Made by a program: the position numbers and the translations under genes. DNA of 32,000 bases from an uncultured SAR116 cluster alpha proteobacterium (GTDB lineage Bacteria > Pseudomonadota > Alphaproteobacteria > Puniceispirillales > Marisalimonadaceae): positions 203,282 through 235,281 of the forward strand of contig CACNWE010000002.1 in NCBI GenBank assembly GCA_902623995.1, written 5' to 3'. This document shows, in pieces, positions 604-30,825 of the stretch; positions within the stretch are counted from its first letter, which is position 1; each line of letters starts with the position of its first letter. The notes under the pieces were generated by a model. That model searched no databases, was not told the DNA's origin, and saw nothing but the letters and a program-made list of their open reading frames with translations.

Positions 604-2484
604 TTAAACGTTAATAATTTTTAATAAACGATTTACCGCTTCGTCAACTGTTTCTGTTTTAGTTTTAATATGTACATCCGGATTAGTTGGTATTTGGTAA
701 GAACTTCCAATACCAGTAAAATTTGGAATTTCACCTTTCCTTGCTTTTTTGTATAACCCTTTAGGATCTCTTTCTTCAGCTAATTCAAGTGGAGTGTCAA
801 TAAATATTTCAATATATTCTTTTTCTTCAAATAATTCACGTACCATTTCCCGCTCAGCTCTGAAAGGAGAAATAAAAGCAGAAATTACAACGATTCCAGC
901 ATCTACCATTAGTTTTGCAACTTCACCAATTCGTCTTATATTTTCAACTCTATCTGCGTTTGTGAAACCAAGGTCACTATTGAGGCCATGACGGATATTG
1001 TCACCATCTAAAATATAAGTGTGAATACCTTTTGCATATAATTTTTTCTCGAGTGCGTTAGCAATAGTAGATTTTCCTGAGCCAGAAATTCCTGTAAACC
1101 ACAGAACTTTGCTTATATGGCCCTTAAGTTGATTCCGTGCTTTCTTGTCAATATCAAGTTTTTGTTGATGTAAGTTATTAGCACGACGGAGTTCAAATTC
1201 TATCATGCCTGCCGCTACAGTTTGGTTGCTTATTCTATCGATTAATATAAAAGCACCTAGTGGTGGGCAGACATGATATTTTTCAAAAGCTATAAGGCGA
1301 TCAGTTTTGATTGTTACAACTAAAAGGTCATTGAGCTCTAATTGTGTTGCTGAAAGATTCTCAAAATTATTAATATTTATCTTGTGCTTTATTGATGTGA
1401 TATTAGCGTTAACTAATGTAGTACCTAATTTCAACCAAAAATTACGACCAAGATAACCGGGGTTTTGATCCATCCATACTAATGCAACTTGAAATTGGTC
1501 TGAAACTTGACATGGGTCGTCAGCCGCTACTATGACGTCTCCTCTGGATGCATCAATTTCTTTGTTAAGAGTAAGAGTTATGGATTTTCCTTGCTCTGCA
1601 CTTTGGAGTTTATCTTTAAACAATATAATATCCTTAATTGTTGCTATTTCACCTGATGGTAAAACTTTAATTGATTGACCAATATTAACTCTACCAGCCT
1701 CAATCATACCTGAAAAACCTCGAAAATTTGAATCATAGCGGTTAACCAATTGAACAGGAAATCTTAGTGGCTGATCAACAGCGGTTGATCTAGTTTCAAT
1801 AGTTTCTAAATAATTTAAGAGCGTTGGTCCTTCATACCAATTCATGTTATCAGATGAATGAGTAATATTATCTCCTTTTAATGCTGAAATTGGAATTGTG
1901 ATTACGTTTTGAAATTTAAGTGAACTAGAGAATTCTTTATATTGTTCAGATATTTGATCATAAGTAATTTGCTGATAATCCACTAAATCCATTTTATTTA
2001 TTGCCACAACAATATTTTTTATACCTAAAACTGAACAAATAATTGAATGACGACGCGTTTGCTCAAGTATACCTTGTTGTGAGTCGATTAAAATTATTGC
2101 TAACTTAGCTGTTGAAGCACCAGTTATCATATTTCTTGTGTATTGTTCATGTCCAGGAGTATCTGCAACTATAAATTTACGATTCTCTGTAGAAAAATAC
2201 CTGTATGCAACATCGATTGTTATACCCTGCTCTCTCTCGGAAGCTAATCCGTCGACTAAAAGAGCAAAATCAATATTATTTCCTTGGGTACCAATTTTTC
2301 GTGAATCAGATTGAAGTGATTTTATTTGGTCTTCAAAGATCACTTGAGCCTCAAAAAGCATTCTTCCTATAAGAGTACTTTTGCCATCATCAACACTACC
2401 ACAAGTTATAAATCTCAAAGTATCAAGTTTGGCTTGTTTGCTGAGATACTGATTAACCTCACTAACATAGGTTAATTTAGTCAT
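604..2484 (-). CDS. cysNC: Bifunctional sulfate adenylyltransferase subunit 1 / adenylylsulfate (APS) kinase (CysN-CysC fusion, NodQ-like)
   Basis: GTPase motifs [21 protein letters not shown] and NKMD in the N-terminal two thirds. The C-terminal APS kinase has P-loop [11 protein letters not shown]. The ORF track starts at TTG 2490; the ATG at 2484 (MTKLTYV...) is the likelier start, 2 nt after the cysD stop. Confidence 0.9.
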
Positions 2485-2486
2485 CT

Positions 2487-3986
2487 TCAAAAATATCCTT
2501 CTTGTTTTTTTATTTCCATTGAAGCAGCATTATCTACATCTATGGCTCTTCCCTGACGTTCACTAATATTTGTACTTAAAATTTCCAAAATAATGGCTTC
2601 AAGATTATTAGCTGAAGATTCAATTGCTCCGGTCAAGGGGTAACAACCAAGTGTTCTAAAACGAATTCTTTTTATTTTAATATTCTCATTAGGCTTTAAA
2701 GGAAAACGATCATCATCTACCATTATTAACATATTATCACGATTTACAACCGGCTGTTCATGTGCAAAATAAAGTGGTACAATTGGAATATTTTCACGAT
2801 AAATATATAGCCATACGTCAAGTTCTGTCCAATTTGAGATAGGAAAAACACGAAGGCTTTCATTTTGGTTTTTCTTTCCATTATATAAAGACCAAAGTTC
2901 AGGACGTTGATTTTTGGGATCCCAGCGATGAGAGGAAGTTCTAAATGAAAAAACACGCTCTTTTGCACGACTTTTTTCCTCATCTCGTCTTGCTCCTCCA
3001 AAAGCAACATCAAAATGGTAATGTTCTAAAGCTAATTTTAAAGATTGTGTTTTCATTATGTCTGTATGTATGGAAGATCCATGATCAAAGGGATTGATAT
3101 TTTTATCAACACCCTCTTGATTAACATATACTAACATATCCATTCCTACTTCTTTTGAGATATAATCACGAAAGTCATACATTGCTTTAAATTTCCAGCG
3201 TGTGTCTATGTGCAGAAGTGGAAATGGTGGTGGATTTGGATAAAATGCTTTACGTGCTAAGTGTAACATAACAGACGAATCTTTTCCAATTGAGTATAAC
3301 ATAACAGGATTGTCTGCTTCTGCCATAACTTCTCTTATGATATGAATAGATTCAGATTCAAGTCGGTCTAAATGGGTCATTTTAGTATTGGATGAGTTTA
3401 TAAAATTATGATTGGTTGTTTCTAAGATATCTGAGTAGCCATGTGAATACATTGCAAGCTCAACACAAATAGAAGATTCAGGTAAATTAATTAATTTTTT
3501 TGCATGATTTTTTTTTAAAAACTTACGTAAAAATTCAACAAGCTTACCGGATGGCAAAATCTGAATATCTCTTTTCTCAAATTGTGCAATTGCTACAAAT
3601 GCTTGTTTAAGCGTTTCATATTTTACACTATTAGTATTTAACTTTATCCAGAAACGATTTTTATCATAATCGTTTAATCCAAGGATAAACTCTTTTGATT
3701 TATGATTAACTATTTGAGCAAATAAGATTAATTTTTCTGATTTTCTTGCACATTTGATTTGTTGTTCAAGTACTAACTGTTTAGCTTTTCTACCATGTTC
3801 ATCCACTATTGACAGATTATCGAGTGGATTAAAATTTAGTTCACTTTTATTTATAGCTTTTTCAATCCTTTTGAGTAAAATTTTAGGATTATCTTTAAAT
3901 ATTTCTTGAGAAATTTCTTTAGTTGTAAATAGAGAAAAGTTGGGATAACTTTTTAGCCACTTTGATATGATTTGAGTATTTTCCAT
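2487..3986 (-). CDS. cysD: Sulfate adenylyltransferase subunit 2 (CysD/NodP) with an uninterrupted ~202-aa N-terminal extension of unknown function
   Basis: Canonical CysD begins at internal Met203 (ATG at 3378-3380 on the minus strand): [18 protein letters not shown]...[15 protein letters not shown] (PAPS-reductase-like SxGxDS loop). That leaves ~297 aa to the stop, the normal CysD size. The upstream 606 nt have no stop codon despite the extreme AT content. Confidence 0.9.
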
Positions 3987-4286
3987 GTTAAAACCAAAAT
4001 AAATATTTTCTTAAGATAATTCCGATTAAGTTAAAATACACACAAAGCTTTATTTTTCAATAGCCAAAAAGAAAGGATAAATAATTTCTATTATTTTAAA
4101 GATTATTACTTGATTAGAATTTGAAAATTATAAGGGATTTTTGGAAAGTTTATTGAGTTAATACTTAAATTTATATTAACATGTTGAAATTTTTTTAGCT
4201 TTAAAATTTCAAAAAACTTTGTTACTGATTATTTGTTAAATTAGTCTTATTCATAAATCATTTAAAATAAATTAATTGTAAATAAA

Positions 4287-5306
4287 ATGACGAAAAATAG
4301 TTTCAATGTATTTGTAATAACTCGTTTTGGTATTGGGCAAAATTCAAAAACTTTTTATGATCGTGAAATTCCTTATTTGGAAAACCTATTAATAAGATCA
4401 ATATTAAAACAAAAAGAATTTATAACTAAGTGGATTATATTAATTGATGTAAAAACTCCAAAATTTGTAACAGAAAAATTAAAAAAATTAATCCCCAAAG
4501 ATATCCTATTCATTTATGCACATGATGTTTTTTTATCAGGCTCTACTATGCCTAATATCACATCAATTTTGAAAAATTTGGGTATTAGAAATAAGGATAA
4601 AGTTGTTACAATTAGAGTGGATGCAGACGACATACTTTCTAACGATTATATTTCATCAGTTTTAGACGTTATAAATATTCAAAAACAAAGAAATAAATAT
4701 GATTTGATCTCTGTTGACGCAACTATAGGGATATATTTTTATCCAATACGAAATAAATTAGTAAAGGTTTTTAGAAAAAATTACAGCATTCAAGCACTAT
4801 ATTCAATTTTTGGCAGTAGTTTCAAATCTGTTCATGATGGAGGAGGTCATGGCGGGTTAGAAAAAATGGTGTTAAAGAAGGGTGGTATTTACTATCAGTT
4901 AAATAATAAAGAATTTTGGATTAGGTCTATGAGGCAACATTCGGTCTCACAATTAGGCATAAAGTTTAATGTTTTATTTGGTAGATACGAAATTATAAAA
5001 AATATTATGAAAATTTTATTAAAAAAAATTTACAATAGTAATACCTTTTACAAAGGAAGAGTGAGTGTAAAGGAATTATCCAATCGTTTCGAAATATCAG
5101 AAAAAATTGTATCTTTATTAAATTTACAGGAACAAAGTTTAGAAATAAAACAGACAGTCTTTTCACCTTTAATAAAAAAAGTTATGAAAGATAACAAAAA
5201 TAGAAATAGAACAAAAATTCAACAAGTTTTATTGAAAATGTATAAAAAAGAAAAAAGCAAAACTGCAAGAGCTAAAATAAAAAAAGAATTTTATAATTTT
5301 TATTAA
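4287..5306 (+). CDS. GT-A-like glycosyltransferase (resembles the 'putative rhamnosyl transferase' family) with a Lys-rich C-terminal tail
   Basis: N-terminal VFVITRFGIG, then SILKQKEFITKWIILIDVKTP, and a DxD-like TIRVDADDILSNDY. This pattern recalls the TRF...RLDxDD layout of that family. Recognition is from memory only. Confidence 0.5.
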   Translation: MTKNSFNVFVITRFGIGQNSKTFYDREIPYLENLLIRSILKQKEFITKWIILIDVKTPKFVTEKLKKLIPKDILFIYAHDVFLSGSTMPNITSILKNLGIRNKDKVVTIRVDADDILSNDYISSVLDVINIQKQRNKYDLISVDATIGIYFYPIRNKLVKVFRKNYSIQALYSIFGSSFKSVHDGGGHGGLEKMVLKKGGIYYQLNNKEFWIRSMRQHSVSQLGIKFNVLFGRYEIIKNIMKILLKKIYNSNTFYKGRVSVKELSNRFEISEKIVSLLNLQEQSLEIKQTVFSPLIKKVMKDNKNRNRTKIQQVLLKMYKKEKSKTARAKIKKEFYNFY

Positions 5307-5431
5307 AGATGTCACTAATTATATATATTTATAAATATACTTGTGTATTATTATGTCAGCAATTAAACCTAAACATTTCAACAAAAAGTAATATTTTTTT
5401 ATCTCTCTAACAAATATATAGTGCAAAAAAC

Positions 5432-6562
5432 ATGAGAATTGTTCATATAATTACTGGCTTAGGGGATGGAGGTGCTGAACATACACTATACAAAATTTGT
5501 AAATACGATAATTCAAATGAACATATTGTTGTCTCGCTAAACGGACTTGATAAATATGGACCTTTATTAGAAAAATTAGGTATCAAAGTTTATTGTTTGA
5601 ATTTAACTATTATTTCTATTTATAAATTTATTTTTCTGATCAAATTAATCCGTTTGTCTAAACCGCATATAGTACAAACTTGGCTCGTCCATGCTGATTT
5701 ATTAGGAGGTGTTGCTGCTAAGTTGTGTGGTGTGGAAAATATTATTTGGAATATTCGTTACTCAAATTTAGAAATTGGCAAAGCAAAGTTTTTTACAATT
5801 ATAATAATTAATTTATTGGCAAAATTATCTTTTTTAATACCTAAATTCATTGTCGTAGTCTCTAAAAAAGCTATAAAAGTTTATGAAAAACAAGGATATG
5901 ACAAAAAAAAATTTATATTTATACCAAATGGCTATGATCTTGCAATTTTAAAACCTAATAATTTTCAAAAATCAGATTTTAGAAAAAAATATAGTATAAA
6001 AAAAGAAATACCTTTGATTGGTAATGTTGCTAGGTATGATCCAAAAAAGGGTCATTTGAACTTAATGCATGCATTGTCATTACTAAAATTAAAAAATATT
6101 AATTTTTTTTGTGTCTTTATTGGTTCTAATATAACCAAGGATAATTTAGAATTAACTTCAGAAATTGAACGACTTAGTCTAGAAAATCATGTGAAATTAT
6201 TAGGACAAAATAATAATATTATAGAAGTAATGAATGGATTAGATGTTTATGTTCATAGCAGTATTTATGGAGAAGGATTTCCAAATGTAGTTGCTGAATC
6301 TATGGCTTGTGGTACACCGTGTGTTGTAACAGATGTTGGAGATGCCTCGCTGATTGTAGGTAAAACTGGATGGGTGATTCCACCTAATAATTCAAAAAAA
6401 CTTGCTTATACAATTGAAAAAGCACTTAATGAAATTGGAAAAGAAGAATGGAATAAAAGAGTTAATAATACAAGATTAAGAGTTAAAACTAATTTTGATA
6501 TTAGTATAATGATCAAATCCTACAACACTCTATGGAGCTCTATTCATAAGAAAATGACATAA
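5432..6562 (+). CDS. Glycosyltransferase family 4 (GT-B fold)
   Basis: N-terminal MRIVHIITGLGDGGAEH and C-terminal EGFPNVVAESMACGTPCVVTDVGD (E-x7-E region) are typical of GT4 retaining transferases. Confidence 0.85.
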   Translation: MRIVHIITGLGDGGAEHTLYKICKYDNSNEHIVVSLNGLDKYGPLLEKLGIKVYCLNLTIISIYKFIFLIKLIRLSKPHIVQTWLVHADLLGGVAAKLCGVENIIWNIRYSNLEIGKAKFFTIIIINLLAKLSFLIPKFIVVVSKKAIKVYEKQGYDKKKFIFIPNGYDLAILKPNNFQKSDFRKKYSIKKEIPLIGNVARYDPKKGHLNLMHALSLLKLKNINFFCVFIGSNITKDNLELTSEIERLSLENHVKLLGQNNNIIEVMNGLDVYVHSSIYGEGFPNVVAESMACGTPCVVTDVGDASLIVGKTGWVIPPNNSKKLAYTIEKALNEIGKEEWNKRVNNTRLRVKTNFDISIMIKSYNTLWSSIHKKMT

Positions 6563-6644
6563 TAATGTAACTTATAAAATATAATTGAATTATTTATATA
6601 AATCGTTATCTTATTCACAATTCTAACTAATCAAACTTATTTTT

Positions 6645-6848
6645 ATGCCACTCATATATACATTCACTACTATAATATTAATAATTACTAGCAAAAACGC
6701 TTATGCATATTTAGATCCTGGAATGGGTAGTATGATTATTCAAGGCATCATAGCTACAATTGCCGCTACAGGTTTAACAATTAAAATTTACTGGCAAAAA
6801 ATTAAGGATTTCTTTATCAAAAAGAAAAAAAAAGATAAAAAAGAATAA
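6645..6848 (+). CDS. Small (67 aa) membrane protein of unknown function
   Basis: Signal-like hydrophobic N-terminus ending AYA, then YLDPGMGSMIIQGIIATIAATGLTI (a transmembrane helix preceded by a DPGxGS motif) and a KKKKKDKKE tail. It fills the gap between two same-strand genes. No homolog recognised. Confidence 0.35.
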   Translation: MPLIYTFTTIILIITSKNAYAYLDPGMGSMIIQGIIATIAATGLTIKIYWQKIKDFFIKKKKKDKKE

Positions 6849-6911
6849 GTCTTTATTTAGTATAGTAATTAATTTATTTGATATTTATAAATCAATCTGA
6901 CAGTTAATATC

Positions 6912-8045
6912 ATGTTTAAATTTATAAAAAATATTATAAATGAGTTTAGAGATTTATTATCTTCTTTAAACATATTAGTTGATACAAAAAATACAAAACC
7001 AAAAATCATCTTTTTTTCAGAAAACAAAGTTTATCAAAAATTTTCTAAACCATTGATTGAAATAATTCTTTCTGTCAGCTCTAACAAAATATATTATTTA
7101 AGTATTGATAAAGAAGACAAAATTCACCACAAAAAAGTAAAAAATTATTATATCAGCCCTTTTTTAATAAATTTTACATTCAATAATTTGAGAGCTGAAA
7201 ATATTTTTTTAACAATTACGGATTTAGGAAATAATTTATTAAAAAAAACAAAAAATATTGATCAATATATTTACTATTTTCATTCACCTGTAAGCACTAT
7301 TAAGAATTATACTTCTAGGGCATTTGACAATTATGATACCATATTGTGCGTTGGTCAATTTCAAATAGATGAGATAAGATCAAGGGAAAAGTCAAAAAAT
7401 CTAAAGAAAAAAAAATTAATCTCTGCTGGCTACTTATATTTTGATTACCTACTAAATAATATTAATTATAACATTAATAACAAAGAAATTTTAATAGCAC
7501 CATCTTGGAATAAAGATTTAAAAAATTTTATAAATGAAAATTTTATAGAATTGATAGAAATTTTAATTGTAAAAGGATTTAAGGTTATCTTTAGGCCACA
7601 TCCTGAACATTTTAAAAGATCAAATAAAATATTACTAGGTATGAGAAATAAATTTTCAAATAAAAATTTTAAATTAGATGCTGATGACAACAATTTAAAA
7701 TCTATGGAAAAAGCAAGATGTTTAATAACGGATAGCTCTGGCATAGCAATTGAGTATATGATTGTTATGAAAAGACCAGTTTTATATCTTGACGAGTATG
7801 ATAAAATTCATAATTCTGAGTTTAGAGAACACTTAGGAAAAAAAGTGTTAGATCATGATATTAAGAAAAACTTTGGTTACATGTTTAAAAAGCATGATTT
7901 TAATAAAATTGATTTTATTATTAATGACTCAGAAAAAAAATTAGTAAAAAAAATGTCAGCACTAAATAATTTTATTAAAAAGAATTATTTTTATTTTGGA
8001 AATACAAAAACTTATTTATTTTCATATTTTAAAAAAAACATATAG
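6912..8045 (+). CDS. TagF/TagB-like CDP-alcohol phosphotransferase (CDP-glycerol glycerophosphotransferase family)
   Basis: Family-typical motifs EILIAPSWNKD (cf. LYAPTxR), VIFRPHPEH and LITDSSGIAIEYMIVMKRPVLYLDEYD (cf. LITDYSS...P.I.F..D). It lies directly upstream of the phosphonate operon. Confidence 0.65.
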   Translation: MFKFIKNIINEFRDLLSSLNILVDTKNTKPKIIFFSENKVYQKFSKPLIEIILSVSSNKIYYLSIDKEDKIHHKKVKNYYISPFLINFTFNNLRAENIFLTITDLGNNLLKKTKNIDQYIYYFHSPVSTIKNYTSRAFDNYDTILCVGQFQIDEIRSREKSKNLKKKKLISAGYLYFDYLLNNINYNINNKEILIAPSWNKDLKNFINENFIELIEILIVKGFKVIFRPHPEHFKRSNKILLGMRNKFSNKNFKLDADDNNLKSMEKARCLITDSSGIAIEYMIVMKRPVLYLDEYDKIHNSEFREHLGKKVLDHDIKKNFGYMFKKHDFNKIDFIINDSEKKLVKKMSALNNFIKKNYFYFGNTKTYLFSYFKKNI

Positions 8046-8100
8046 ATATTTAGTCAATTTAAGTTTAAAAGTAATTGGTTTAATAACAATTATTAGAATA

Positions 8101-9402
8101 ATGAAAAAAAAAATTGCATATGTTGGTATGTCTGCCGACATTCTTCACAAAGGTCACATTAATATCTTAAAAACTGCCAGTAGATATGGTGAGGTATATG
8201 TAGGATTGTTAACAGATCAAGCAATTGCAAGTTATAAAAATATCCCATATTTAGACTATGAAAAAAGAAAAATAATCCTTGAAAATATAAAATATGTTAA
8301 GAAAGTTGTTCCACAGTTAACCCTAGATTATGTCGAAAATCTTAATCTAATTAAACCTGATTATGTAGTTCATGGTGATGACTGGAAAATTGGTATTCAA
8401 AAGGAAACACGAAAAAGGGTGATTAACACTATAAAAAAGTGGTCCGGTAAGCTTATAGAGCCAAAATATACAGAAAAAATATCATCTACGTTAATAAAAA
8501 AAGAAATGTCAAATTTAATTACTTCGCCTGAAAATAGAATTTCAAGATTAAAACGATTAATGAGCTCTAAAGATATTGTTAAAATATTAGAGTCTCATAA
8601 TCCTCTTACTGGTCTAATAATAGAAAAAATTAATGTTAAAAAAAACAAAAAAACAATAGAGTTTGATGGAATGTGGTCATCTAGTCTAACTGACTCTGCT
8701 ACAAGAGGTCTTCCAGATAATTCTTCTTTATCTTTCTCTGCCCGTATCTCTTCATTAAATGATATGATGGATGTGACAAGTAAGCCAGTTGTTTTTGATG
8801 CAGATAACGGTGGTCAAATTGAACACTTACCTTTTTTAATTAGATCTTTAGAAAGATCTGGTGCATCAGCTATAATAATGGAAGACAAAGTAGGTTTGAA
8901 GAAAAACTCACTATTTAAAAATCAAAAAGACACTAAACAAGATAAACCTGAATTATTTGCAAAAAAAATAAAAAAAATATGTGATTTGCGTCAATCTAAA
9001 GATTTTATGGTTATAGCTAGAATTGAAAGTTTCATAATTGGTAAAGGTTTAACTGATGCCATAAAAAGAGCAGACATATATTCCAAAGCTGGAGCTGATG
9101 CTATTTTAATTCATAGTAAAGAGAAAACACCGGCAGAAATATTCTCTTTCGCTAAAGAATTTAAAAAAAGTAAAAATTTTATTCCGTTAGTTTGTGTTCC
9201 TTCTACTTATTCTAAAGTAAAGGAAGATGATTTGATAAAACATGGATTTAAATTAGTCATATATGCTAACCAACTTCTAAGAGCTGCTTACCCAGCAATG
9301 CAAGAGACTGCAAGAACGATTTTGAAAAATCAAAGAGCATTTGAAGCTGATAAAAAAATAATACCAATCAATGAAATAATAAACTTAATTAAAAATGATT
9401 AA
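8101..9402 (+). CDS. pepM: Bifunctional cytidylyltransferase / phosphoenolpyruvate mutase (Fom1-like, PntC-Ppm type fusion)
   Basis: The N-terminal ~135 aa carry HxGH (ADILHKGHINIL) and YTEKISSTLI, as in TagD-type cytidylyltransferases. The C-terminal domain has FDGMWSSSLTDS, FDADNGG, the PepM-diagnostic EDKVGLKKNS (EDKxxxxxNS), ARIES and GADAILIHS. The ORF track extends to 7996, but that part overlaps the upstream gene; ATG 8101 (MKKKIAYVG) is the sensible start. Confidence 0.9.
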   Translation: MKKKIAYVGMSADILHKGHINILKTASRYGEVYVGLLTDQAIASYKNIPYLDYEKRKIILENIKYVKKVVPQLTLDYVENLNLIKPDYVVHGDDWKIGIQKETRKRVINTIKKWSGKLIEPKYTEKISSTLIKKEMSNLITSPENRISRLKRLMSSKDIVKILESHNPLTGLIIEKINVKKNKKTIEFDGMWSSSLTDSATRGLPDNSSLSFSARISSLNDMMDVTSKPVVFDADNGGQIEHLPFLIRSLERSGASAIIMEDKVGLKKNSLFKNQKDTKQDKPELFAKKIKKICDLRQSKDFMVIARIESFIIGKGLTDAIKRADIYSKAGADAILIHSKEKTPAEIFSFAKEFKKSKNFIPLVCVPSTYSKVKEDDLIKHGFKLVIYANQLLRAAYPAMQETARTILKNQRAFEADKKIIPINEIINLIKND

Positions 9403-10492
9403 AGTTGAAGAACTAATAAACATTTTTAAAAAAAATAATAGTAATTTTTTTACAGGTGTTCCAGACAGTGTTTTAAAAGAATTGTCATCGTTTCTTCAAA
9501 GTAAAAATAAAAAAAACCATATTATTGCTACCAGCGAAGGCTCAGCTGTGTCAATTGGTATAGGTCATTACCTGTCTAAAAAAGAGATACCAATAATTTA
9601 TATGCAAAATTCTGGGCTTTCAAATGCATTAAATCCTTTAATATCAATGGCACATGATAAAGTTTATTCGATACCATTAATTTTAGTGATTGGGTGGAGA
9701 GGTTCACCAATGCTTAAAGATGAACCCCAGCATAATGTAAAAGGTATGATTACTGAACAACTTTTAAAACTATTAAAAATTAAATACACTATTATAAGAT
9801 CGCCTGCTGACTTAAATAAATTTGATAAACAAATTAAACTTGCAAATAAAAATAAAACTATTGTTGCCTGTTTGATTGAGCAAGGCACCTTCCAAAAAAC
9901 TAAAATAATTAACAAAAAAGATTTTTATGCACTAGAAAAAGAATTTTTTTTTAAAACCTTGCTCGAAAACATTAATATAAAGACAAAAATAATCTCAAGT
10001 ACTGGCTATAATTCTAGAGAACTAATGTACTTTAGAAAAAAATATAAGCTATTTCATGGTAGAGATTTCTACATGGTTGGTGGTATGGGTCATACTGCAT
10101 CCACAGCACTTGGTTATTCTTTGTTTTCACAAAACACAACATTATGTATAGATGGTGATGGGTCATGTTTGATGCATCTTGGATCAATTAAAACTGTAGG
10201 TATGTTTGCAAGTACAAATTTTAAATATATTCTTTTAAATAATAACTCACATGACTCTGTAGGCGGTCAACTTACTTACGCGAGCGAAATTGATTTTGAA
10301 AAATTAAGTATCAGTCTTGGCTTTGAAAAGTATTATTGTATCGACAATCAATATAAGTTGGAAGATAAAATTAAGGAATTTTTATCAGAAAAAAATCTTA
10401 GTTTCCTTGAAGTAAAAATAGCAAATTGTAAAATTAAAGAATTACCCCGACCATTAAATTTTATTAAAATTAAAAACGATTTTATGGAATAA
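9395..10492 (+). CDS. ppd: Phosphonopyruvate decarboxylase (thiamine-diphosphate dependent)
   Basis: ThDP-binding motif GDGSCLMHLGS...LNNNSHDSVGGQ. The ~365 aa size is typical of Ppd. The start overlaps the pepM stop (ATGATTAA), implying translational coupling. Confidence 0.85.
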   Translation: MIKVEELINIFKKNNSNFFTGVPDSVLKELSSFLQSKNKKNHIIATSEGSAVSIGIGHYLSKKEIPIIYMQNSGLSNALNPLISMAHDKVYSIPLILVIGWRGSPMLKDEPQHNVKGMITEQLLKLLKIKYTIIRSPADLNKFDKQIKLANKNKTIVACLIEQGTFQKTKIINKKDFYALEKEFFFKTLLENINIKTKIISSTGYNSRELMYFRKKYKLFHGRDFYMVGGMGHTASTALGYSLFSQNTTLCIDGDGSCLMHLGSIKTVGMFASTNFKYILLNNNSHDSVGGQLTYASEIDFEKLSISLGFEKYYCIDNQYKLEDKIKEFLSEKNLSFLEVKIANCKIKELPRPLNFIKIKNDFME

Positions 10493-11596
10493 ATGATAAA
10501 TACAACAAGTGAAATTACTAATTACTTAGATAATGATTCCTATAAAAAAATATTCATTTTATGTGGAAAAAAATCTTTTACATTTTCTGGTGCAGAAGTA
10601 TTTTTTAAAAATATATTAAGAAAAAAAAAGATTAAAATTTTTTATAAAAGATCAGAAATACCTGACTTTAATGAATTAGTTTCAATAATAAAAATTATTA
10701 GAAATTTCAAACCAAATTTAATTTTAGCCGTAGGTGGGGGTGCAGTATTAGATTATGCAAAAATTGCTAATGTTGTTGATATAAAGTCTAATTTAGTAGA
10801 CTTAATTTCTAATTATTCATACCCTTTTGAAAATAAATATACAAAATTAGTTGTTATTCCCACTACAGCAGGATCTGGGGCCGAAATCACTTCCAATGCT
10901 GTTATTTATGTTGATGGTATAAAACATTCATTGGAAAGTGATCTATTAATACCTGATAAATTCTTTTTAATTCCAAATTTTTTGATTTCTGCACCATTTA
11001 AAGTCAAAGCATCAGCGGGCTTTGATGCTATTGCACAAGCTTTAGAGTCCTTGATTTCAAAAAAATCTACGTTGGAAAGCATAGAGTACGCATCAAATTC
11101 ACTCAAAATTTCAATTGATTACTATTTTCATTATTTAAATAATACAAATCTTAAAAATGCATCAGAAATGAGTTTAGCTGCAAATTTAGCTGGAAAGGCA
11201 ATCAGTATTTCAAAAACAACAGCACCACATGCAATATCATACCCTTTTACCTTTTTATTTAATATAAGTCACGGACATGCAGTAAGTTTATTTTTTGAAA
11301 AAATTTTTAAGTATAATTATTATAATTTAAGTGAATCGGATACTCAATTTGATCTAGAGAAAAGATTTGAGCTTATTTTTGATTTGCTAGAAGTTAAAAA
11401 TATAAAAGATTTTATTTCAAAAATTATTTCAATAAAAAAATATGCTAGGCTAGAAGATAATTTGACTAAGTTAAATATAGATATTGAAAAAAGCTCAGAA
11501 AAAATTATTGGAGGAATAAATTTTTTAAGGCTTGGAAATAATCCTATTAAATTAGATGATCAAAAAATTTATAAAATTATTACAGATCGAATGTAA
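10493..11596 (+). CDS. Iron-containing (group III) alcohol dehydrogenase; predicted phosphonoacetaldehyde reductase giving 2-hydroxyethylphosphonate
   Basis: AVGGGAVLDYAKI, PTTAGSGAEITSNAV and conserved His residues (APHAISYP, SHGHAV). The ATG directly abuts the ppd stop (TAAATG). The Fe-ADH family call is firm; the substrate is inferred from the pepM-ppd context (FomC/PhpC/Pdh precedent). Confidence 0.75.
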   Translation: MINTTSEITNYLDNDSYKKIFILCGKKSFTFSGAEVFFKNILRKKKIKIFYKRSEIPDFNELVSIIKIIRNFKPNLILAVGGGAVLDYAKIANVVDIKSNLVDLISNYSYPFENKYTKLVVIPTTAGSGAEITSNAVIYVDGIKHSLESDLLIPDKFFLIPNFLISAPFKVKASAGFDAIAQALESLISKKSTLESIEYASNSLKISIDYYFHYLNNTNLKNASEMSLAANLAGKAISISKTTAPHAISYPFTFLFNISHGHAVSLFFEKIFKYNYYNLSESDTQFDLEKRFELIFDLLEVKNIKDFISKIISIKKYARLEDNLTKLNIDIEKSSEKIIGGINFLRLGNNPIKLDDQKIYKIITDRM

Positions 11597-11678
11597 TCGA
11601 AAGTCTAAAAAAGTAATTTAAAAAATTATAAAGATCTAACGTGGTTAATTGTTTCTATTAAATAATTATTAAAGAGAG

Positions 11679-13412
11679 CTAATCTGACAAATCATATGAT
11701 CTTATATCAAACAGTGCTTTTCCTTTATCCTTACCACTTACTATAATACCGTCATAAACGTTTGCACCGCCTACAACAGATTTATATCGATCAAAGAATT
11801 TTCTTTCTACTTTTAACTTGTCAAATAAATTTTTATTATTCGTTATTTTAGCTAAAATGGCAGGAATAATATCTTGTGTGATCATGATATTGACGTCACT
11901 ATTTGAAATATCTTCAGGCCAGTAAATACTTAAAAAGGTACCATATCTGTCTTGTATATCGTACTTATTTATTTCATTGATATCATAATTTTCAAGAGTA
12001 TGACAATTTTTGGTCAGATAAGGGCCATGATCACTTAAAAGAACAATTATAGAATTTTTATCATTTTTTTTAATATTTAGAACATCATTTCTCATTTCTG
12101 TATTAGCTATTTTCATTCTTTCGAAATATGAATTCTTTTCATTTATGTTACATTTTCCGCTGTTTTGTGAATGGCCAGGAAATTTATTATGAGTAAAAAA
12201 TAGTGACTTTTTTTTCTCTGATCTTAAATAATCTTTTTTTAAATTAAGATAATTATTATAATTAAAGTCATCATCAAATATGTCAAATCTGAATTGACCT
12301 TCAAAAATAGCTTTTGTAAGAGTTTTACCTCCAATTTTAGTGACATCCTCTTTAGGATGATAATTATCCCATTTTATAGGTGATGAACTAAAGAAATAAG
12401 GAGATGTAAATATCGCTGATGTTTTATACCCGTTTGCTTTAAATATATCTAATCCTAGGGCATTACCAGATGTATAATGTCTTCCATCACGATTGATTTC
12501 ACCTTGCATTTCAAGAATTCTAGAGATAGCACCTATTGATAACGCGCTATTAGAATATGTTCCATGATAAATTTTGAAACCATTATTTTCTAAAAATTTA
12601 ATATGTTCTTTATTATCGAATCCATAATGATCCAGTGTTTCCAAGTTTGCATATGATTCATATCCCAATATATAAATATTCTTATCTTTAATAATTTTGT
12701 TATTTTTATTTTTCAAGAATTCTAAAAGTTTAGGGTTTTTTTCAAGATATTTTGATTTATGTAAAGAAATGTTATTAAAATTAATTATTATACCACTCAC
12801 AGTAAATAATATTGCGCTTACGTAAGCTATTTTTTTATTAAATAAAAAAAATCCATACATTATTAAAAACAAAATAACTATATATAATCCCTCCATTACA
12901 ATTTGAATGGTAAATATATCATCACCTGGGTTATGTTTATTAGATATTTGAGCCATATTTAATACAGTAAAAGTCAGAGTAAGTCCTGAAAACATCAACA
13001 TTTTCAATGATGCAAAGTAGCTAAAAATTATAGGTAAAATAAAACTAAAAATTAAAATAAAAAATAAAGTAGTACCGAATAGATGAATCAAACCGTTTAT
13101 ATTAAGGTATTCGCTATTAATTATAGAATAATCAAAGACTGGTGACATGGGTAAGATTATTAGGATTAAATCCTTAGTTTCTGGTAAATCTATTTTATTT
13201 TTAAATTTAAAATCTTTATTAAACAGTAAATAAATTATGTAAATAATCATTAAAAATATTAAAGCTAATATAATAATTTTTGAGCCCAATAATAAAAATT
13301 TAGTATTAAATCCCTCTGGAAATAAAAATCTCATTGCAGTCATGCTAAATAGAACAAAAATTGAACTGACGATTAAATCTAAGATAAAATTTGTTTGAGT
13401 TTTTATTTGCAT
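11679..13412 (-). CDS. Polytopic membrane protein with a C-terminal alkaline-phosphatase-superfamily domain (LtaS/EptA/OpgB-like phospho-headgroup transferase or hydrolase)
   Basis: About 6-7 hydrophobic helices in the first ~240 aa, then a soluble domain with NIYILGYESY (metal ligand region), GTYSNSALS and LLSDHGPYL (DH metal ligands). No C/S-x-P-x-R formylglycine motif is present. The ORF track starts at TTG 13481; ATG 13412 (MQIKTQT...) is likelier. Confidence 0.65.
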   Translation of the reverse strand: MQIKTQTNFILDLIVSSIFVLFSMTAMRFLFPEGFNTKFLLLGSKIIILALIFLMIIYIIYLLFNKDFKFKNKIDLPETKDLILIILPMSPVFDYSIINSEYLNINGLIHLFGTTLFFILIFSFILPIIFSYFASLKMLMFSGLTLTFTVLNMAQISNKHNPGDDIFTIQIVMEGLYIVILFLIMYGFFLFNKKIAYVSAILFTVSGIIINFNNISLHKSKYLEKNPKLLEFLKNKNNKIIKDKNIYILGYESYANLETLDHYGFDNKEHIKFLENNGFKIYHGTYSNSALSIGAISRILEMQGEINRDGRHYTSGNALGLDIFKANGYKTSAIFTSPYFFSSSPIKWDNYHPKEDVTKIGGKTLTKAIFEGQFRFDIFDDDFNYNNYLNLKKDYLRSEKKKSLFFTHNKFPGHSQNSGKCNINEKNSYFERMKIANTEMRNDVLNIKKNDKNSIIVLLSDHGPYLTKNCHTLENYDINEINKYDIQDRYGTFLSIYWPEDISNSDVNIMITQDIIPAILAKITNNKNLFDKLKVERKFFDRYKSVVGGANVYDGIIVSGKDKGKALFDIRSYDLSD

Positions 13413-13566
13413 AAATTTCAATATGTAGTTATTTGTTTTGAATATATGATATGTATTATTTATTCCATATAACAACAACAACAGATTAATAACATAAAGT
13501 TAAAATATTTTACTTACAATTTAAAAATTGTGAAACATTACTTACACATTTGATTGAAATTAAACA

Positions 13567-14691
13567 ATGAAACATATTTTATTTATTGCTGCTGATGCTG
13601 ATTCTTTAATTAATTTCAGACTTCCTTTGATAAAAAAAATATTGTCTAGAGGTCACTTGGTAAGTGTTGCATCGCCAATAAATAAATCATCAAAATTTTT
13701 ACAAAAAGAACTTCAAGATATTGGAGTTAGTTTTCATATATTTAAAGTTTCACGAACAGGTTTGAATCTTTTTAAGAATTTTAAATCTTTATTAGAGATA
13801 TACAAAATTATTAAAATTACAAATCCAAATATAATAATTTCTTATATGGCTAAACCTGTAATTTACACAGGCTTAGTATTAAAAATTTTTAAAAAAATCT
13901 CGTATTATCCTATGATTACCGGTATAGGCTATGGTCTCTACGAAAAAAAATCATTCAAACATATGATACTAAAATTATTAATCAAAAATTTATATTATTT
14001 TTCTTTGAAAAGTGCAAAAAAAATAATATTTCAAAATGCTGATGACCAAACATTATTTAGAAAATTTAAGATAATAGATAAATATAAAATATCAGAAATT
14101 GTAAATGGTTCTGGTATTGATTTGAAAGCTTACCCGTTTTCAAAATTACCTAAAAAACCAATATTTTTAATGGTGGCAAGATTACTCATAGATAAAGGAG
14201 TTAGAGAATATGTAGAAGCTGCAAAGATTGTACGTCTTCAATATCCTAATGTGATTTTTCAATTAGCTGGTAACTTAGACGAAAATCCTGCAAGTATTCA
14301 CTTAAAAGAATTAGAGAAATGGATTCATCAAGGAGATATTTTGTATTTAGGAAAATGTAAATCAGTTCATTTAATCCTACAAAATTGTAAATTTTTTGTA
14401 CTTCCTTCTTATCGCGAAGGGACTCCTAGATCCACTCTGGAAGCGCTCTCAACTGGAAGACCAGTAATTACGACTAATGTTCCAGGTTGTAGGGAAACTG
14501 TAACGCATGGGAAAAATGGATTAATAATACCAGTTAAAGATACATTAGCTTTATCGAAGGCAATGATAAAATTGATAAACACAAAGGATGAACAAATTAA
14601 AAAAATGGCTAGAGAAAGTTTTAATATTGCAAAAGATAAATATGAGGTAAGTAAAGTCAACCAAAAAATGATACAAATAATGAACTTATAA
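13567..14691 (+). CDS. Glycosyltransferase family 4, PglA/WbuB-like
   Basis: N-terminal ILFIAADADSLINFRLPLIKKIL resembles the PglA-type N-terminus. REGTPRSTLEALSTGRPVITTNVPGCRETV is the GT4 nucleotide-sugar binding region. Confidence 0.8.
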   Translation: MKHILFIAADADSLINFRLPLIKKILSRGHLVSVASPINKSSKFLQKELQDIGVSFHIFKVSRTGLNLFKNFKSLLEIYKIIKITNPNIIISYMAKPVIYTGLVLKIFKKISYYPMITGIGYGLYEKKSFKHMILKLLIKNLYYFSLKSAKKIIFQNADDQTLFRKFKIIDKYKISEIVNGSGIDLKAYPFSKLPKKPIFLMVARLLIDKGVREYVEAAKIVRLQYPNVIFQLAGNLDENPASIHLKELEKWIHQGDILYLGKCKSVHLILQNCKFFVLPSYREGTPRSTLEALSTGRPVITTNVPGCRETVTHGKNGLIIPVKDTLALSKAMIKLINTKDEQIKKMARESFNIAKDKYEVSKVNQKMIQIMNL

Positions 14692-14814
14692 GTACATAAA
14701 CTCAAGGTTTACAAGAAATATATCAACAAAATTATTTATATTATTTACTTTATAAAAATGTTAAATAATGGATTATAATTTAAACAAAATTTTCTAAATA
14801 AGGTGCTTTTTTAA

Positions 14815-15855
14815 GTGAGTTTAATTGATATTATTTTTGGAACAGTTCCAAATAGTCTAATTTTTTTTATATTTGTGTTTGCCCTAAATATTATATGTGT
14901 TTTTTTATATAAAAAGCTAGCCTTCAGGTTTGGTATTCTTGCTTATCCAAATTTTAGAACTTTACACGAATTATCTATTCCAAGAGGTGGTGGAATAGTT
15001 TTCTCATTTAGTTTTATAGTTGGTGTATTTGTTCTTTGGTATCTAAATTTATTATCGGAAAAATTATTTTTTATATTAGGTTTGGGAGGAACAATAGCAG
15101 TATTATTTGGGTTTATTGATGATATTTATAATATAAGAGCAATTCGTAAACTTTTAATTCAAATTTGTTTAAGTGCTTGGATTTTATTTTGGTTAGAGGA
15201 TGAAATTTTTTTAAATGAACTTGGTTTGTTAGAATTTATTATGTTACCAACGCTTATGTTTTTTATAGTTTGGATAATCAATGCCTATAATTTTATGGAT
15301 GGAATAGATGGAATGGCAGCCACGGGTGCTTTTTATTTTTCAGGAGCCCTAACTTTAATTATGATTATGACTAATAATTTCTCAGAACTAACATTTTTAT
15401 TTTTCCTTTTGATGGCAAGTGTAGGTGCATTTATACTTTTCAATTGGCCTCCAGCAAATATATTTATGGGTGATGCAGGTAGTATTTTTCTAGGTTATGT
15501 TTTTGGTGCATTTATTATTATAACTGTTTTTAGAGGTGAGCTAAGTATTTGGACCTGGCTTGTAATGTTTGGATATTTTTTCGCTGATACAACGGTTACT
15601 CAAATTACAAGAATAATTTTAGTAAAGCAATATTACAAAGCTCATCGAAGTCATGCTTATCAAAATCTTGCAAGAATAACTGGCAGTCATTTTAAAATTA
15701 CCTTTTGTGTGACTGTTTTCCACGTACTTTGGTTGCTGCCTCTTACATTGTGGACTGTCAAACAACCTGAAATGGAAATATTAGCTGTTTTTTTAGCCAT
15801 CACACCAGGCTTGATAGTAGCCTATAAATATGGGCCTATATTATCATCATCGTAG
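14815..15855 (+). CDS. Polyprenyl-phosphate N-acetylhexosamine-1-phosphate transferase (MraY/WecA/WbpL family), the initiating transferase
   Basis: INAYNFMDGIDGMA and NIFMGDAGSIFLGY motifs, ~10 predicted transmembrane helices and ~346 aa. GTG start; there is no in-frame ATG near the N-terminus. Confidence 0.9.
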   Translation: MSLIDIIFGTVPNSLIFFIFVFALNIICVFLYKKLAFRFGILAYPNFRTLHELSIPRGGGIVFSFSFIVGVFVLWYLNLLSEKLFFILGLGGTIAVLFGFIDDIYNIRAIRKLLIQICLSAWILFWLEDEIFLNELGLLEFIMLPTLMFFIVWIINAYNFMDGIDGMAATGAFYFSGALTLIMIMTNNFSELTFLFFLLMASVGAFILFNWPPANIFMGDAGSIFLGYVFGAFIIITVFRGELSIWTWLVMFGYFFADTTVTQITRIILVKQYYKAHRSHAYQNLARITGSHFKITFCVTVFHVLWLLPLTLWTVKQPEMEILAVFLAITPGLIVAYKYGPILSSS

Positions 15856-17025: not shown

Positions 17026-17466
17026 ATGAAAAAATGGCAAGATATTAAATTAGATGACGAGACTATGTGGCCAAAGGAAGGTCTTGTAAAACTTGATCGT
17101 CCACATGTTGACGATCGTGGTTTTATACAAAATCTTGTGAATTTCCCTATGAAAAATATTTCATTAATTTCTTCAAAAAAGGGATCTATACGCTCTAATC
17201 ATTATCATCTTACTGATTGGCATTATATGTATGTATTGTTTGGATCTTTTGATTATTATTACAAACCAACAAACAGTGATGTTGATTTAAAATGTATACG
17301 AGTAAAAAAAGGTGAAATGATATTTACTCCACCTATGGAAGATCATGCTACATTTTTTTTAGAAGATTGTAATCTATTAGCTATGAGTCGTAATCCGAGA
17401 GATCAGAAAACATACGAATCAGATACACGAAGAATAATTTTGATTTCTCCAGAAGATTTAAAATAA
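17026..17466 (+). CDS. RmlC-like cupin; NDP-4-keto-6-deoxy-sugar epimerase or 3,4-ketoisomerase-like
   Basis: 146 aa, with VDDRGFIQNL and SIRSNHYH as in small sugar-nucleotide cupins (FdtA/QdtA/RmlC-like). The stop overlaps the next start (TAATG). Confidence 0.6.
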   Translation: MKKWQDIKLDDETMWPKEGLVKLDRPHVDDRGFIQNLVNFPMKNISLISSKKGSIRSNHYHLTDWHYMYVLFGSFDYYYKPTNSDVDLKCIRVKKGEMIFTPPMEDHATFFLEDCNLLAMSRNPRDQKTYESDTRRIILISPEDLK

Positions 17467-29337: not shown

Positions 29338-30825
29338 TTATATTATTTCTCCTACATACAGATAATAAATTCGTTCTAAATTATTAACTGTTTTTGTGGA
29401 AATACTTTTGATTAATTTAATTTCATTAAGATTATAGTTTTTCTCTTTTAAATCAGGAAAATTTTTTATGATTAATATTTTTTCCCCTTTTGTTTTATTT
29501 ATTAAGTCGTAATTAAAATTCGATTCATAGAAATTACCAGGAACCAAGCTATTAGTTTTTATAAAAATTTTATTTTCAAATTCGTTTTTGTGACGATTAA
29601 GGTAATAATTAAATCTTGAAATATCTCCTCTTTTTTCAAAAATTATTTTTGATGCTTTTTCCGCTTTAAATGTTTCATGTATTTTTGAAGCAAGGTTTTC
29701 AAATCCTAAATTTTTTCTTAGTGGATTAGATTTTAAATTTAATGGGTAAAAACTTCCATTGATTGTAATAGTTAATATATATGCTGAAATAGCAATATTT
29801 AAAAAAAGTCCCAAATAAAAAGATATTTTAAAGACAGCACTTCGTGTTTTGGTTACATAGTAACTTATGATAAGAGTTGCACCTACATAAGCTGTAATTG
29901 CCCAATTAGCATTTGCAATTTTTAAAAAACTTTGAACTGTAATCAAAAAAATTATAGGAAAAGAAATCATAGCTAATAGAGTAATGTCTCGGTCTTTAAA
30001 AAAACTATCTATTATTACAAAAAGGTATAATAAAAATAATAAAGGCCCAAAGACCAAAAATTGAGATGATAAAAAATCAAGCACATTATTATAGTTCAGG
30101 CTTATTACTGAAAGATTTGCGTTTGAAATAGTATGATTTACCGTTGAAAAGTCATTTAAATAATTCCAATATAAGTTTGGGCTTGCTATCAAAAAGCTTG
30201 TAAACAATATAATAAAAATTTTTTTTACACTTAAAAATGTACTTCGGTCGTAAACTAGCCACCATATAATAAAGAAAATCAAAAAATATAAAGCGGCATA
30301 TTTGGATAAAAATGCGAAGCCTAGAAACATGCCAACAAATAAAGATGAAAGGCTAGAATTATGTCTCAAAGAAATTAATAACAAAAACAAAGATAAAGAC
30401 CAAAATAACAATAGTGGAGTGTCAGTTGAAATTATAAATCCGCCTAAAGAAGCTCCTGGTGTGAATATCCAGATTAAAGCTGCAACTTTTCCAGAGTTTA
30501 ACCCAAATGCAAATTTCGCAGCACCCCACAAAACTAAGGAAATCAATAAATGTGTAATTGGTGAAAAAAGTCTCACAGCCCATTCGTCATTTCCAAAAAT
30601 AAAAGTCGAGATTGAAATCATCCATGCTATGAATGGTGGTTTAGTAAAGTATCCAAAGTCTATATTTCTTGACCAATGCCAATATTGTGCTTCGTCAACA
30701 GACAATTCTATTGGGGAAACGTACAAAGAGTATATTCTTAAAGTAGTTATAATTATTAAGATGAATAGAGTTATAGGAGTGTTAAGTAAGGTAAATCGTC
30801 CCCTCTTGTTTCGGAGTGATAACAT
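29338..30825 (-). CDS. GT-C fold glycosyltransferase, family 39/83 (ArnT/PMT-like, polyprenyl-phosphate-sugar dependent)
   Basis: SVDEAQYWHWSRNIDFGYFTKPPFIAWMI (DE...KPP loop-1 signature), ~11 transmembrane helices and a ~130-aa soluble C-terminus. Confidence 0.8.
   Translation of the reverse strand: MLSLRNKRGRFTLLNTPITLFILIIITTLRIYSLYVSPIELSVDEAQYWHWSRNIDFGYFTKPPFIAWMISISTFIFGNDEWAVRLFSPITHLLISLVLWGAAKFAFGLNSGKVAALIWIFTPGASLGGFIISTDTPLLLFWSLSLFLLLISLRHNSSLSSLFVGMFLGFAFLSKYAALYFLIFFIIWWLVYDRSTFLSVKKIFIILFTSFLIASPNLYWNYLNDFSTVNHTISNANLSVISLNYNNVLDFLSSQFLVFGPLLFLLYLFVIIDSFFKDRDITLLAMISFPIIFLITVQSFLKIANANWAITAYVGATLIISYYVTKTRSAVFKISFYLGLFLNIAISAYILTITINGSFYPLNLKSNPLRKNLGFENLASKIHETFKAEKASKIIFEKRGDISRFNYYLNRHKNEFENKIFIKTNSLVPGNFYESNFNYDLINKTKGEKILIIKNFPDLKEKNYNLNEIKLIKSISTKTVNNLERIYYLYVGEII

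Follow-up and report, generated by a model that had tools for sequence, protein, structure and literature searches.

The window analysed here is a stretch of 32,000 nucleotides from an uncultured SAR116 cluster alphaproteobacterium (contig CACNWE010000002.1), and its subject is a gene on the reverse strand at 11679..13412. The product, 577 aa long, combines seven membrane helices with an alkaline-phosphatase-superfamily domain at the C-terminus (hereafter 7TM-AP). The mechanically called open reading frame (ORF) covers 11679..13481 on the reverse strand from a TTG start; we used the ATG at 13412, whose methionine is the start in 33/33 aligned homologs and which gives the 577-aa product. The gene is convergent with a phosphonate cassette (pepM-ppd-adh), as a sequence-only reading of this DNA had said, and the coordinates confirm the 82-bp gap between the adh stop (11596) and the last base of the 7TM-AP stop codon (11679). 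We found no terminator-like site or hairpin in this gap, and promoter-like sites are as frequent as in shuffled sequence.

The cassette consists of three forward-strand genes. The first (8101..9402) encodes a cytidylyltransferase (CT)-phosphoenolpyruvate (PEP) mutase fusion with PF01467 and PF13714 domains that passes TIGR02320 (371.3 bits, cutoff 319.55) and carries EDKVGLKKNS, in line with the EDKxxxxxNS signature of PEP mutase, at residue 296 of the ORF read from its TTG start. This listed ORF begins at TTG 7996 and has a 50-bp overlap with the preceding gene. More likely, translation starts at ATG 8101 (Met36, MKKKIAYVGMSADILHKGH), which resembles a true cytidylyltransferase start and leaves no overlap. 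The second gene (9395..10492) encodes phosphonopyruvate decarboxylase (Ppd), a thiamine pyrophosphate enzyme with PF02775 and PF02776 domains that stays next to pepM in related loci. The third (10493..11596) encodes an Fe-dependent alcohol dehydrogenase (Fe-ADH) with PF00465 and PF25137 domains, which scores 109.4 bits against the Phn_Fe-ADH model TIGR03405, below the 423.7-bit cutoff. By analogy, this enzyme is predicted to reduce phosphonoacetaldehyde to 2-hydroxyethylphosphonate (HEP). Fusions of PF01467 to PEP mutase are exemplified by Fom1, whose cytidylyltransferase domain makes cytidine monophosphate (CMP)-HEP (PMC6697681), and PhpC-type Fe-ADHs make HEP (PMC8942020). Hence, with a Fom1-like fusion and a PhpC-type Fe-ADH, the likely product of the operon is CMP-HEP.

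The tightest partner of 7TM-AP is not pepM; it is an unannotated gene at 6912..8045 on the forward strand. The sequence-only reading had rightly pointed to the adjoining pepM operon and had overlooked this constant partner, together with a small peptide encoded at 6645..6848. The 377-aa product is a putative TagF-like phosphotransferase acting on alcohols activated with cytidine diphosphate (CDP) or on CMP-phosphonates, as suggested by homology and fold. Over 300 aa it shares 27% identity (E 1e-26) with the N-terminal domain of a 1027-aa fusion protein (P0191); that domain matches Pfam Glyphos_transf (PF04464), and the C-terminal part of the fusion belongs to the 7TM-AP family. In the profile search the window protein itself gave weak GT-B matches only, and its SAR11 homolog matched PF04464 at 3e-13 (49.9 bits, cutoff 22.1). 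The AlphaFold2 model has a predicted local distance difference test score (pLDDT) of 88; its top 12 Foldseek matches are all TagF (3l7i-3l7m, best E 2e-12), and other GT-B enzymes (epimerases) follow at about 1e-7. Both the PF04464 profile and the modelled TagF-type GT-B-like fold point to membership in the TagF family.

The motifs ILGYESY (E252) and LLSDHGP (D461-H462) are both present in the 7TM-AP translation, as the sequence-only reading had reported. It had also found no C/S-x-P-x-R motif, and we found neither [CS]x[PA]xR in the protein nor the formylglycine motif [CS]xPxR in any of 59 family members (0/59). Because the protein's own score against Pfam Sulfatase (PF00884) falls below the cutoff, its assignment to the superfamily rests on the predicted fold and on relatives that pass, such as P0124 (33.8 bits) and P0135 (30.1 bits); several SAR11 homologs have a precomputed PF00884 match as well. 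No N-terminal EptA-type Pfam domain was detected. Searches of PDB sequences with the single protein and with family profiles A1 and A2 returned no alkaline-phosphatase-superfamily chain. The sole matches of the protein and both profiles were TetR chains (E 0.025-2.5) over a helix-rich stretch of about 40 residues; this stretch, at aa 262-312, spans the proposed nucleophile. We treated this similarity as chance.

An AlphaFold2 model of 7TM-AP built with 34 homologs (mean pLDDT 80, predicted template modelling score 0.66) has seven long N-terminal helices (2-30, 35-64, 79-98, 105-130, 136-157, 169-191 and 193-219) followed by an alpha/beta domain. The six to seven helices and the soluble domain of about 340 aa proposed from the sequence are thereby fixed as seven helices at aa 1-219 (12756..13412, reverse strand), with the N-terminus predicted to be cytoplasmic, and a catalytic domain, predicted to be extracytoplasmic, at aa 236-577 (11682..12707, reverse strand), which is supported by alignment column counts, the Sulfatase match and the fold match. 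Foldseek against the PDB gave full-length MCR-1 (9nww), PbgA/YejM (6v8q, 6xlp), EptC (6a82), EptA (5fgn) and LtaS (4uor) as the top matches, with E of about 1e-6 and with TM-scores near 0.5 against the soluble-domain structures when normalised to the latter. In total, 123 PDB structures matched at E <= 0.001, and among them sulfatases rank below lipid-headgroup transferases.

Conservation was read from a family-wide alignment of 59 sequences that are 26-49% identical to the window protein. We found that position 252, the candidate metal ligand, is Asp in 41 and Glu in 18, and that position 287, the candidate nucleophile, is Ser in 48 and Thr in 11. H408, H414, N437, D461, D488, R489 and Q513 are invariant (59/59), and H462 is kept in 58/59. 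A Ser/Thr swap at a fixed site about 35 residues past the acidic ligand is expected for the nucleophile of the alkaline phosphatase superfamily, whose fold has an acidic ligand after the first strand, the nucleophile about 35-45 residues on, and an Asp-His pair. The predicted structure and the family columns of 7TM-AP show this pattern. The putative roles of E252, S287, H408, H414 and D461-H462 are assigned by position in the alignment, not by superposition. The earlier proposal depended on such residues surviving alignment, and they do: an acidic residue at 252 and a hydroxyl residue at 287 throughout the family, with the Asp-His pair behind them.

The location of the soluble domain, on which the proposal likewise depended, was predicted by positive-inside analysis as the mean number of Lys plus Arg residues (K+R) per loop over the same 59 sequences. 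Inside segments carried 2.6 (N-terminus), 4.4 (between transmembrane helices TM2 and TM3), 1.5 (TM4-5) and 2.2 (TM6-7), and outside loops 0.1 (TM1-2), 0.3 (TM3-4) and 1.2 (TM5-6). Hence, this charge bias predicts a protein with its N-terminus inside, seven helices and the catalytic domain outside. In natural fusions, the segment directly ahead of TM1 is cytoplasmic, either a TagF-like domain or the C-terminus of a YidC-like domain, and this agrees with the predicted extracytoplasmic position of the catalytic domain. The TM3-TM4 loop, predicted to face outward, holds the family-invariant N99 within an N-x-E-Y-L motif.

The protein resembles EptA, LtaS, GacH and BcsG in architecture and probably in chemistry, and is a sequence-level member of none of these families. 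The description of 7TM-AP as LtaS/EptA-like therefore stands for architecture and Foldseek matches and fails for sequence-level membership and for helix number. With EptA, MCR-1 and EptC (among its best fold matches) it shares a polytopic N-terminal membrane domain, a periplasmic alkaline-phosphatase-fold domain, an acidic residue, a hydroxyl nucleophile, an Asp-His metal site and a place in or near envelope-glycan loci. It differs in having Ser as the predicted nucleophile (Ser or Thr in the family) and a TagF-like partner, which is absent with EptA; moreover, EptA and MCR-1 gave no PDB sequence or profile match, and hhalign of the family profile with E. coli EptA gave a probability of 0.4. 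EptA and LtaS have five membrane helices, compared to the seven predicted here. LtaS and GacH likewise use an extracytoplasmic sulfatase-fold domain to move a phospho-alcohol headgroup from a membrane lipid to a surface polymer, but their donor is an ordinary lipid (phosphatidylglycerol) and they have no dedicated cytoplasmic partner, whereas the cargo proposed for 7TM-AP is a C-P compound. The LtaS family uses a Thr nucleophile with Mn, in contrast to Ser in 7TM-AP, and no sequence or profile match to LtaS chains was found. BcsG, which uses a Ser nucleophile, is also polytopic with a periplasmic alkaline-phosphatase-fold domain and decorates its polysaccharide after export; it differs in lying in the cellulose synthase operon and in drawing on phosphatidylethanolamine, and although hhalign pairs SDHGP of 7TM-AP with PEHGG of BcsG, the probability of 0.6 is not significant. 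GacH, the glycerol-phosphate transferase of the streptococcal rhamnose polysaccharide, is encoded inside a polysaccharide locus (bioRxiv 10.1101/337519).

Close homologs of 7TM-AP (n=312) all come from marine metagenomes or Pelagibacter (SAR11-type). Profile searching of 1.84 billion cluster representatives reached 341 clusters (50% identity) at E <= 1e-30 and 1962 at E <= 0.001. A scan with one genome per species gave 79 loci, most of them in Chloroflexota and seven in Pelagibacteraceae; the remainder are in Erysipelothrix, Clostridiales, Syntrophaceae, spirochaetes, Sumerlaeota, Neptunomonas, Bdellovibrionota and a Bathyarchaeia bin. Public names for family members do not go beyond 'hypothetical protein' or 'sulfatase-like hydrolase/transferase', the latter as in one close homolog from Candidatus Pelagibacter sp. 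HIMB1495, and no NCBIfam model was found for 7TM-AP, the TagF-like partner, the fusion proteins or the methyltransferase-like partner described below. Our literature searches found no description of the 7TM-AP family, of its fusions with TagF or YidC, or of the small peptide, and for CMP-2-aminoethylphosphonate (AEP) or CMP-HEP with teichoic acid or LtaS the only relevant item was the 2019 nucleotidyl-activation paper. Since sequence searches fail to reach the MCR-1/EptA, PbgA, EptC and LtaS families, we regard 7TM-AP as a separate, unnamed clade. Some members (L007 7631-8380, L010 129-740, L045 9221-9970 and protein P0124) have an extra N-terminal region of about 200-250 aa, which matched neither Pfam nor the YidC-like and TagF-like profiles.

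Of the 21 SAR11-type metagenome contigs that extend 3 kb or more on each side of the 7TM-AP homolog, 19 have the TagF-like gene next to it, and a TagF-like gene lies beside 7TM-AP in 16/79 species-level genome loci. In SAR11 the two are separate genes. Clostridiales, Erysipelothrix and one spirochaete have a YidC-like gene (232 aa) followed by a TagF-like--7TM-AP fusion of about 1030 aa; L009, another spirochaete locus that is cut off upstream, has the TagF-like--7TM-AP fusion too. The other arrangement, a TagF-like gene followed by a YidC-like--7TM-AP fusion of about 800 aa, was found in Neptunomonas and Bdellovibrionota.

We found pepM within 10 kb of 7TM-AP in 7/79 species-level loci: L005 (SAR11), L008 and L016 (Clostridiales), L009 (Sphaerochaetaceae), L014 (Sumerlaeota), L073 (Neptunomonas) and L077 (Bdellovibrionota). 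All are TagF-linked, so that pepM is near in 7/16 TagF-linked and 0/63 TagF-less genome loci (Fisher p = 4e-6). In L016, two tandem units of a YidC-like gene and a TagF--7TM-AP fusion lie directly beside ppd, CT-pepM and adh. The pepM cassette accompanies 7TM-AP in 7 of the 21 well-flanked metagenome loci of SAR11 type, about one third. In a neighbour-joining tree of the catalytic domain, pepM-linked members appear in several deep TagF-linked lineages and not as one clade. The linkage with pepM noted in the window thus recurs across phyla, but most loci of the family lack it; hence, the phosphonate appears to be a facultative cargo. Earlier genome surveys report sulfatase genes in some pepM neighbourhoods (Selenomonas) (PMC8942020).

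In the SAR11 layout of the window, the cassette lies between the TagF-like gene and 7TM-AP. In the alternative SAR11 layout (e.g. L162), the two genes are directly convergent with no pepM within 10 kb, and the gene content of L162 is typical of a glycan locus: Wzz, PglF-like, DegT, Bac_transf, several glycosyltransferases and, in addition, a CTP_transf_3 cytidylyltransferase. The Fe-ADH is the usual third gene of the cassette (5/7 genome loci and 13 metagenome loci). In a few SAR11 loci (L163/L164, L005) its place is taken by a protein of 328 aa that weakly matches class-V aminotransferases (e.g. 4903-5889), and the cargo of this layout may be AEP. The L163/L164 layout also has an extra stand-alone 132-aa cytidylyltransferase (8298-8696) between the TagF-like gene and CT-pepM. 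In Erysipelothrix inopinata (L042, 787-15730), the fused module is in a teichoic-acid/capsule-type locus that also encodes EpsG, two LicD proteins, a GT4 enzyme, a fusion of choline kinase and nucleotidyltransferase, and a canonical LtaS-like protein of the sulfatase family (622 aa); this setting suggests phosphocholine or a similar cargo. Hence, given these pepM-less glycan and Erysipelothrix loci, the TagF-like/7TM-AP pair looks like a general carrier of CDP/CMP-activated headgroups, and HEP would be its cargo in loci with the pepM cassette.

Further components recur beside 7TM-AP. The small membrane protein of the window (6645..6848, forward strand, 67 aa) has a signal-like N-terminus that ends in A-Y-A; a membrane helix opening with Y-L-D-P-G-M-G-S follows, the tail is rich in lysine, and the protein has no Pfam match. 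The N-terminus of TagF-like proteins, fused or separate, has the same Y-L-D-P-G-x-G-S motif and helix. The Y-L-D-P-G peptide is a separate ORF of 55-105 aa in 63/163 loci (fewer than one chance match was estimated), including Chloroflexota loci without a TagF-like gene. The typical Chloroflexota-type order is the small ORF, a 465-aa methyltransferase-like gene (19 genome loci, mostly Chloroflexota) and the 7TM-AP gene, and the 465-aa gene seems to take the place held elsewhere by the TagF-like gene. Its product (e.g. L031 12034-13431) has an N-terminal F-R-D-P-S-G region and a weak S-adenosylmethionine-methyltransferase signature, DLGANTG.

Another component is a YidC/Oxa1-like paralogue, which passes TIGR03592 (94.4 vs 84.3 bits). 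It is a separate gene in L008, L013, L014, L016, L042, L043 and L071 and is fused in L073 and L077; outside SAR11 it has about 230 aa, and in some SAR11 loci (L002 8670-9872) it forms the C-terminal half of a 400-aa protein. This paralogue could be a dedicated insertase or a lipid flippase. Since YidC-type insertases are reported to scramble lipids (PMC11047089), it is a candidate for the latter. Several 377-aa soluble TagF-like homologs are called 'YidC/Oxa1 family membrane protein insertase' by JGI, probably a misnomer spread from multi-domain relatives, because YidC-like and TagF-like domains share the module.

So far, alignments, models and analogy with known enzymes suggest that 7TM-AP may well be a catalytically active extracytoplasmic transferase of phospho- or phosphono-headgroups that carries out the last step of a conserved relay, a reading to which we give about even weight. 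First, the CT-PepM fusion, Ppd and the Fe-ADH would make HEP and activate it as CMP-HEP, the product being proposed by analogy with Fom1. Next, the TagF-like enzyme, perhaps tethered by the small peptide, would move the phosphonyl group from CMP-HEP to a membrane-bound acceptor at the cytoplasmic face, and the product would be a phosphonolipid or a lipid-linked intermediate. This intermediate would then reach the outer leaflet, a movement that the dedicated YidC-like paralogue could bring about in other phyla. Finally, Ser287 would attack the phosphorus at the E252/D461/H462 metal site, and HEP would be passed to a hydroxyl of a surface glycan or glycoprotein built by the island; this chemistry is proposed from the conserved residues and the mechanism of known relatives. 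In pepM-less loci the same pair would carry another CDP-activated headgroup. Because the TagF-like domain inside and the alkaline phosphatase domain outside cannot act on one molecule simultaneously, a membrane-bound intermediate is the simplest link between them. To our knowledge, all characterised polytopic relatives (LtaS, EptA, GacH, BcsG and OpgB) take their headgroup from a lipid of the outer leaflet.

We also propose, more tentatively and with clearly less confidence, a relay of up to four parts: the Y-L-D-P-G-x-G-S peptide as an anchor, a headgroup loader (TagF-like, or methyltransferase-like in Chloroflexota), the YidC paralogue, which would act as a lipid flippase for the loaded intermediate and not insert proteins, and 7TM-AP at the outer end. 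In SAR11, such a relay would put HEP esters on surface glycans.

Several observations weigh against the proposed headgroup transfer. The match of 7TM-AP to Pfam Sulfatase is 17.3 bits over aa 424-520 only, below the 25-bit cutoff, and the choice of S287 as the putative nucleophile comes from its position and the S/T conservation pattern. The donor lipid is hypothetical, and the substrates of characterised TagF-family enzymes are lipid-linked glycans or polymers under construction, not plain lipids. No YidC-like component was found in the window. Because 7TM-AP is on the strand opposite the operon, co-transcription is excluded. The cargo would not always be HEP, since the aminotransferase-like gene replaces the Fe-ADH in some SAR11 loci. 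Most broadly, TagF-like and pepM neighbours are both lacking in 63/79 genome loci; with about 80% of the family (species level) in this state, its ancestral substrate is something else.

A first alternative is a different division of labour. The TagF-like enzyme may add HEP straight to an undecaprenyl-linked glycan in the cytoplasm, and 7TM-AP would do another step outside, either transfer of a common headgroup (phosphoethanolamine or phosphoglycerol) as EptA, OpgB and GacH do, or attachment or release of the completed polymer. We consider this unlikely. In its favour, the TagF fold match agrees with the lipid-linked glycans and polymers on which TagF-family enzymes act, the loci without TagF-like or pepM neighbours would need a generally available donor, and 7TM-AP is transcribed separately. 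However, direct phosphonylation leaves unexplained the TagF-like--7TM-AP fusion in several phyla, the travelling of the pair as a unit with the pepM cassette, and the fused or adjacent YidC-like paralogue.

There is a smaller chance that 7TM-AP is an LtaS-type polymerase that builds a teichoic-acid-like chain outside from lipid-donor headgroups, which with HEP would be poly(hydroxyethylphosphonate). LtaS is among the best fold matches, the partner most resembles TagF, a teichoic acid polymerase, the locus in Erysipelothrix is of a teichoic-acid-like kind, and the usual third gene, the Fe-ADH, leads to a phosphonate with a free hydroxyl like that of glycerol phosphate. However, we know of no poly-HEP polymer, and the AEP that would result from the aminotransferase-like gene in some loci has no hydroxyl for chain extension. 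In addition, the HEP of the sea has been described as bound to polysaccharide material (PMC8931226).

A hydrolase that trims, remodels or recycles surface esters outside the cytoplasm, as a phosphodiesterase or a phosphonate-monoester hydrolase, is just as improbable. The alkaline phosphatase superfamily is rich in hydrolases, phosphonate monoester hydrolases among them, and the catalytic residues alone cannot tell hydrolysis from transfer, with sulfatases lower among the fold matches. However, Foldseek ranks polytopic transferases and PbgA first rather than soluble hydrolases; the conserved seven-helix domain and the invariant residue of the outward loop suggest lipid handling; and the fusion to a biosynthetic TagF-like domain and the setting in biosynthetic loci argue for synthesis.

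We rejected a non-catalytic lipid or glycolipid sensor like PbgA/YejM as very improbable: its structures match the full-length fold and rank second and third with Foldseek, but PbgA is regarded as a lipid-binding regulator, not an enzyme, whereas in the 7TM-AP family the nucleophile and metal-ligand positions are strictly kept, in 59/59 sequences down to 26% identity, which indicates selection for catalysis. A true sulfatase acting on a sulfated glycan, to which the weak Pfam Sulfatase match and the genes for 3'-phosphoadenosine 5'-phosphosulfate (PAPS) at the window's left end (cysNC plus a cysD-like gene, 604-3986) might point, was rejected with almost no probability left to it, given the absence of C/S-x-P-x-R in 7TM-AP and 59 relatives, the Ser/Thr at the nucleophile position and the low rank of sulfatases among the fold matches.

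Headgroup transfer by 7TM-AP, if correct, would bear on a step that the literature describes as unresolved, the one after CMP-phosphonate formation, for which LicD-like enzymes are the sole candidates named (PMC6697681). These are the LicD-type phosphotransferases of the proposed phosphonyl-tailoring (Pnt) pathway, which would bring the CMP-activated phosphonate onto a surface glycan (PMC6697681). They differ from the TagF-like/7TM-AP pair in being cytoplasmic and of unrelated fold; no LicD gene was found in the window, where the pair would fill that role. In Erysipelothrix, however, LicD genes accompany the module, and one spirochaete locus has a homolog from a LicD cluster. The TagF-like enzyme and the outward-facing 7TM-AP, linked by fusions and by co-location with pepM in six lineages, are candidates for the surface-phosphonylation step. 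HEP is a major phosphorus form in sea water. SAR11 phosphonates have been proposed to be on surface glycoconjugates, and through these the producers among SAR11 and Prochlorococcus are suggested to maintain the large phosphonate pool of the sea (PMC8931226); the relay, if real, would be the missing enzyme set for HEP esters on surface glycans in SAR11. The analysis also delimits a large unnamed enzyme family and flags a possible non-insertase role for the YidC paralogue. The module could be knocked out in cultured carriers, namely Neptunomonas qingdaonensis and Erysipelothrix species.

The genes beyond 7TM-AP belong to a glycan island. By Pfam, a GT4-type glycosyltransferase (13567-14691) and a WecA/MraY-type initiating transferase (14815-15855) are encoded on the forward strand, and the glycan-synthesis genes at 13567..15855 may supply the acceptor. 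More glycan genes continue to 21454, and the island includes glycosyltransferase, WecA-like, PglF-like and PIG-L genes. The G+C content is 23-28% over window positions 4001-14000 and 30-33% in most other parts (27% at 28-30 kb); the low G+C fits a variable, possibly exchanged, surface-glycan island.

At the edge of this island, on the reverse strand at 604-3986, are a CysN/CysC fusion gene and a CysD-like gene for sulfate activation to PAPS, and the CysD-like protein has a 225-aa N-terminal extension without a Pfam match. Their position suggests sulfation of the surface glycan rather than sulfur assimilation. A 146-aa ORF at 17026-17466 (forward strand) weakly matches the C-terminal part of a polysaccharide flippase and may be a gene fragment. 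Finally, 16 kb from 7TM-AP, the reverse strand at 29338-30825 encodes a PMT_2/ArnT-like GT-C glycosyltransferase, an outward-acting enzyme that uses a lipid donor.

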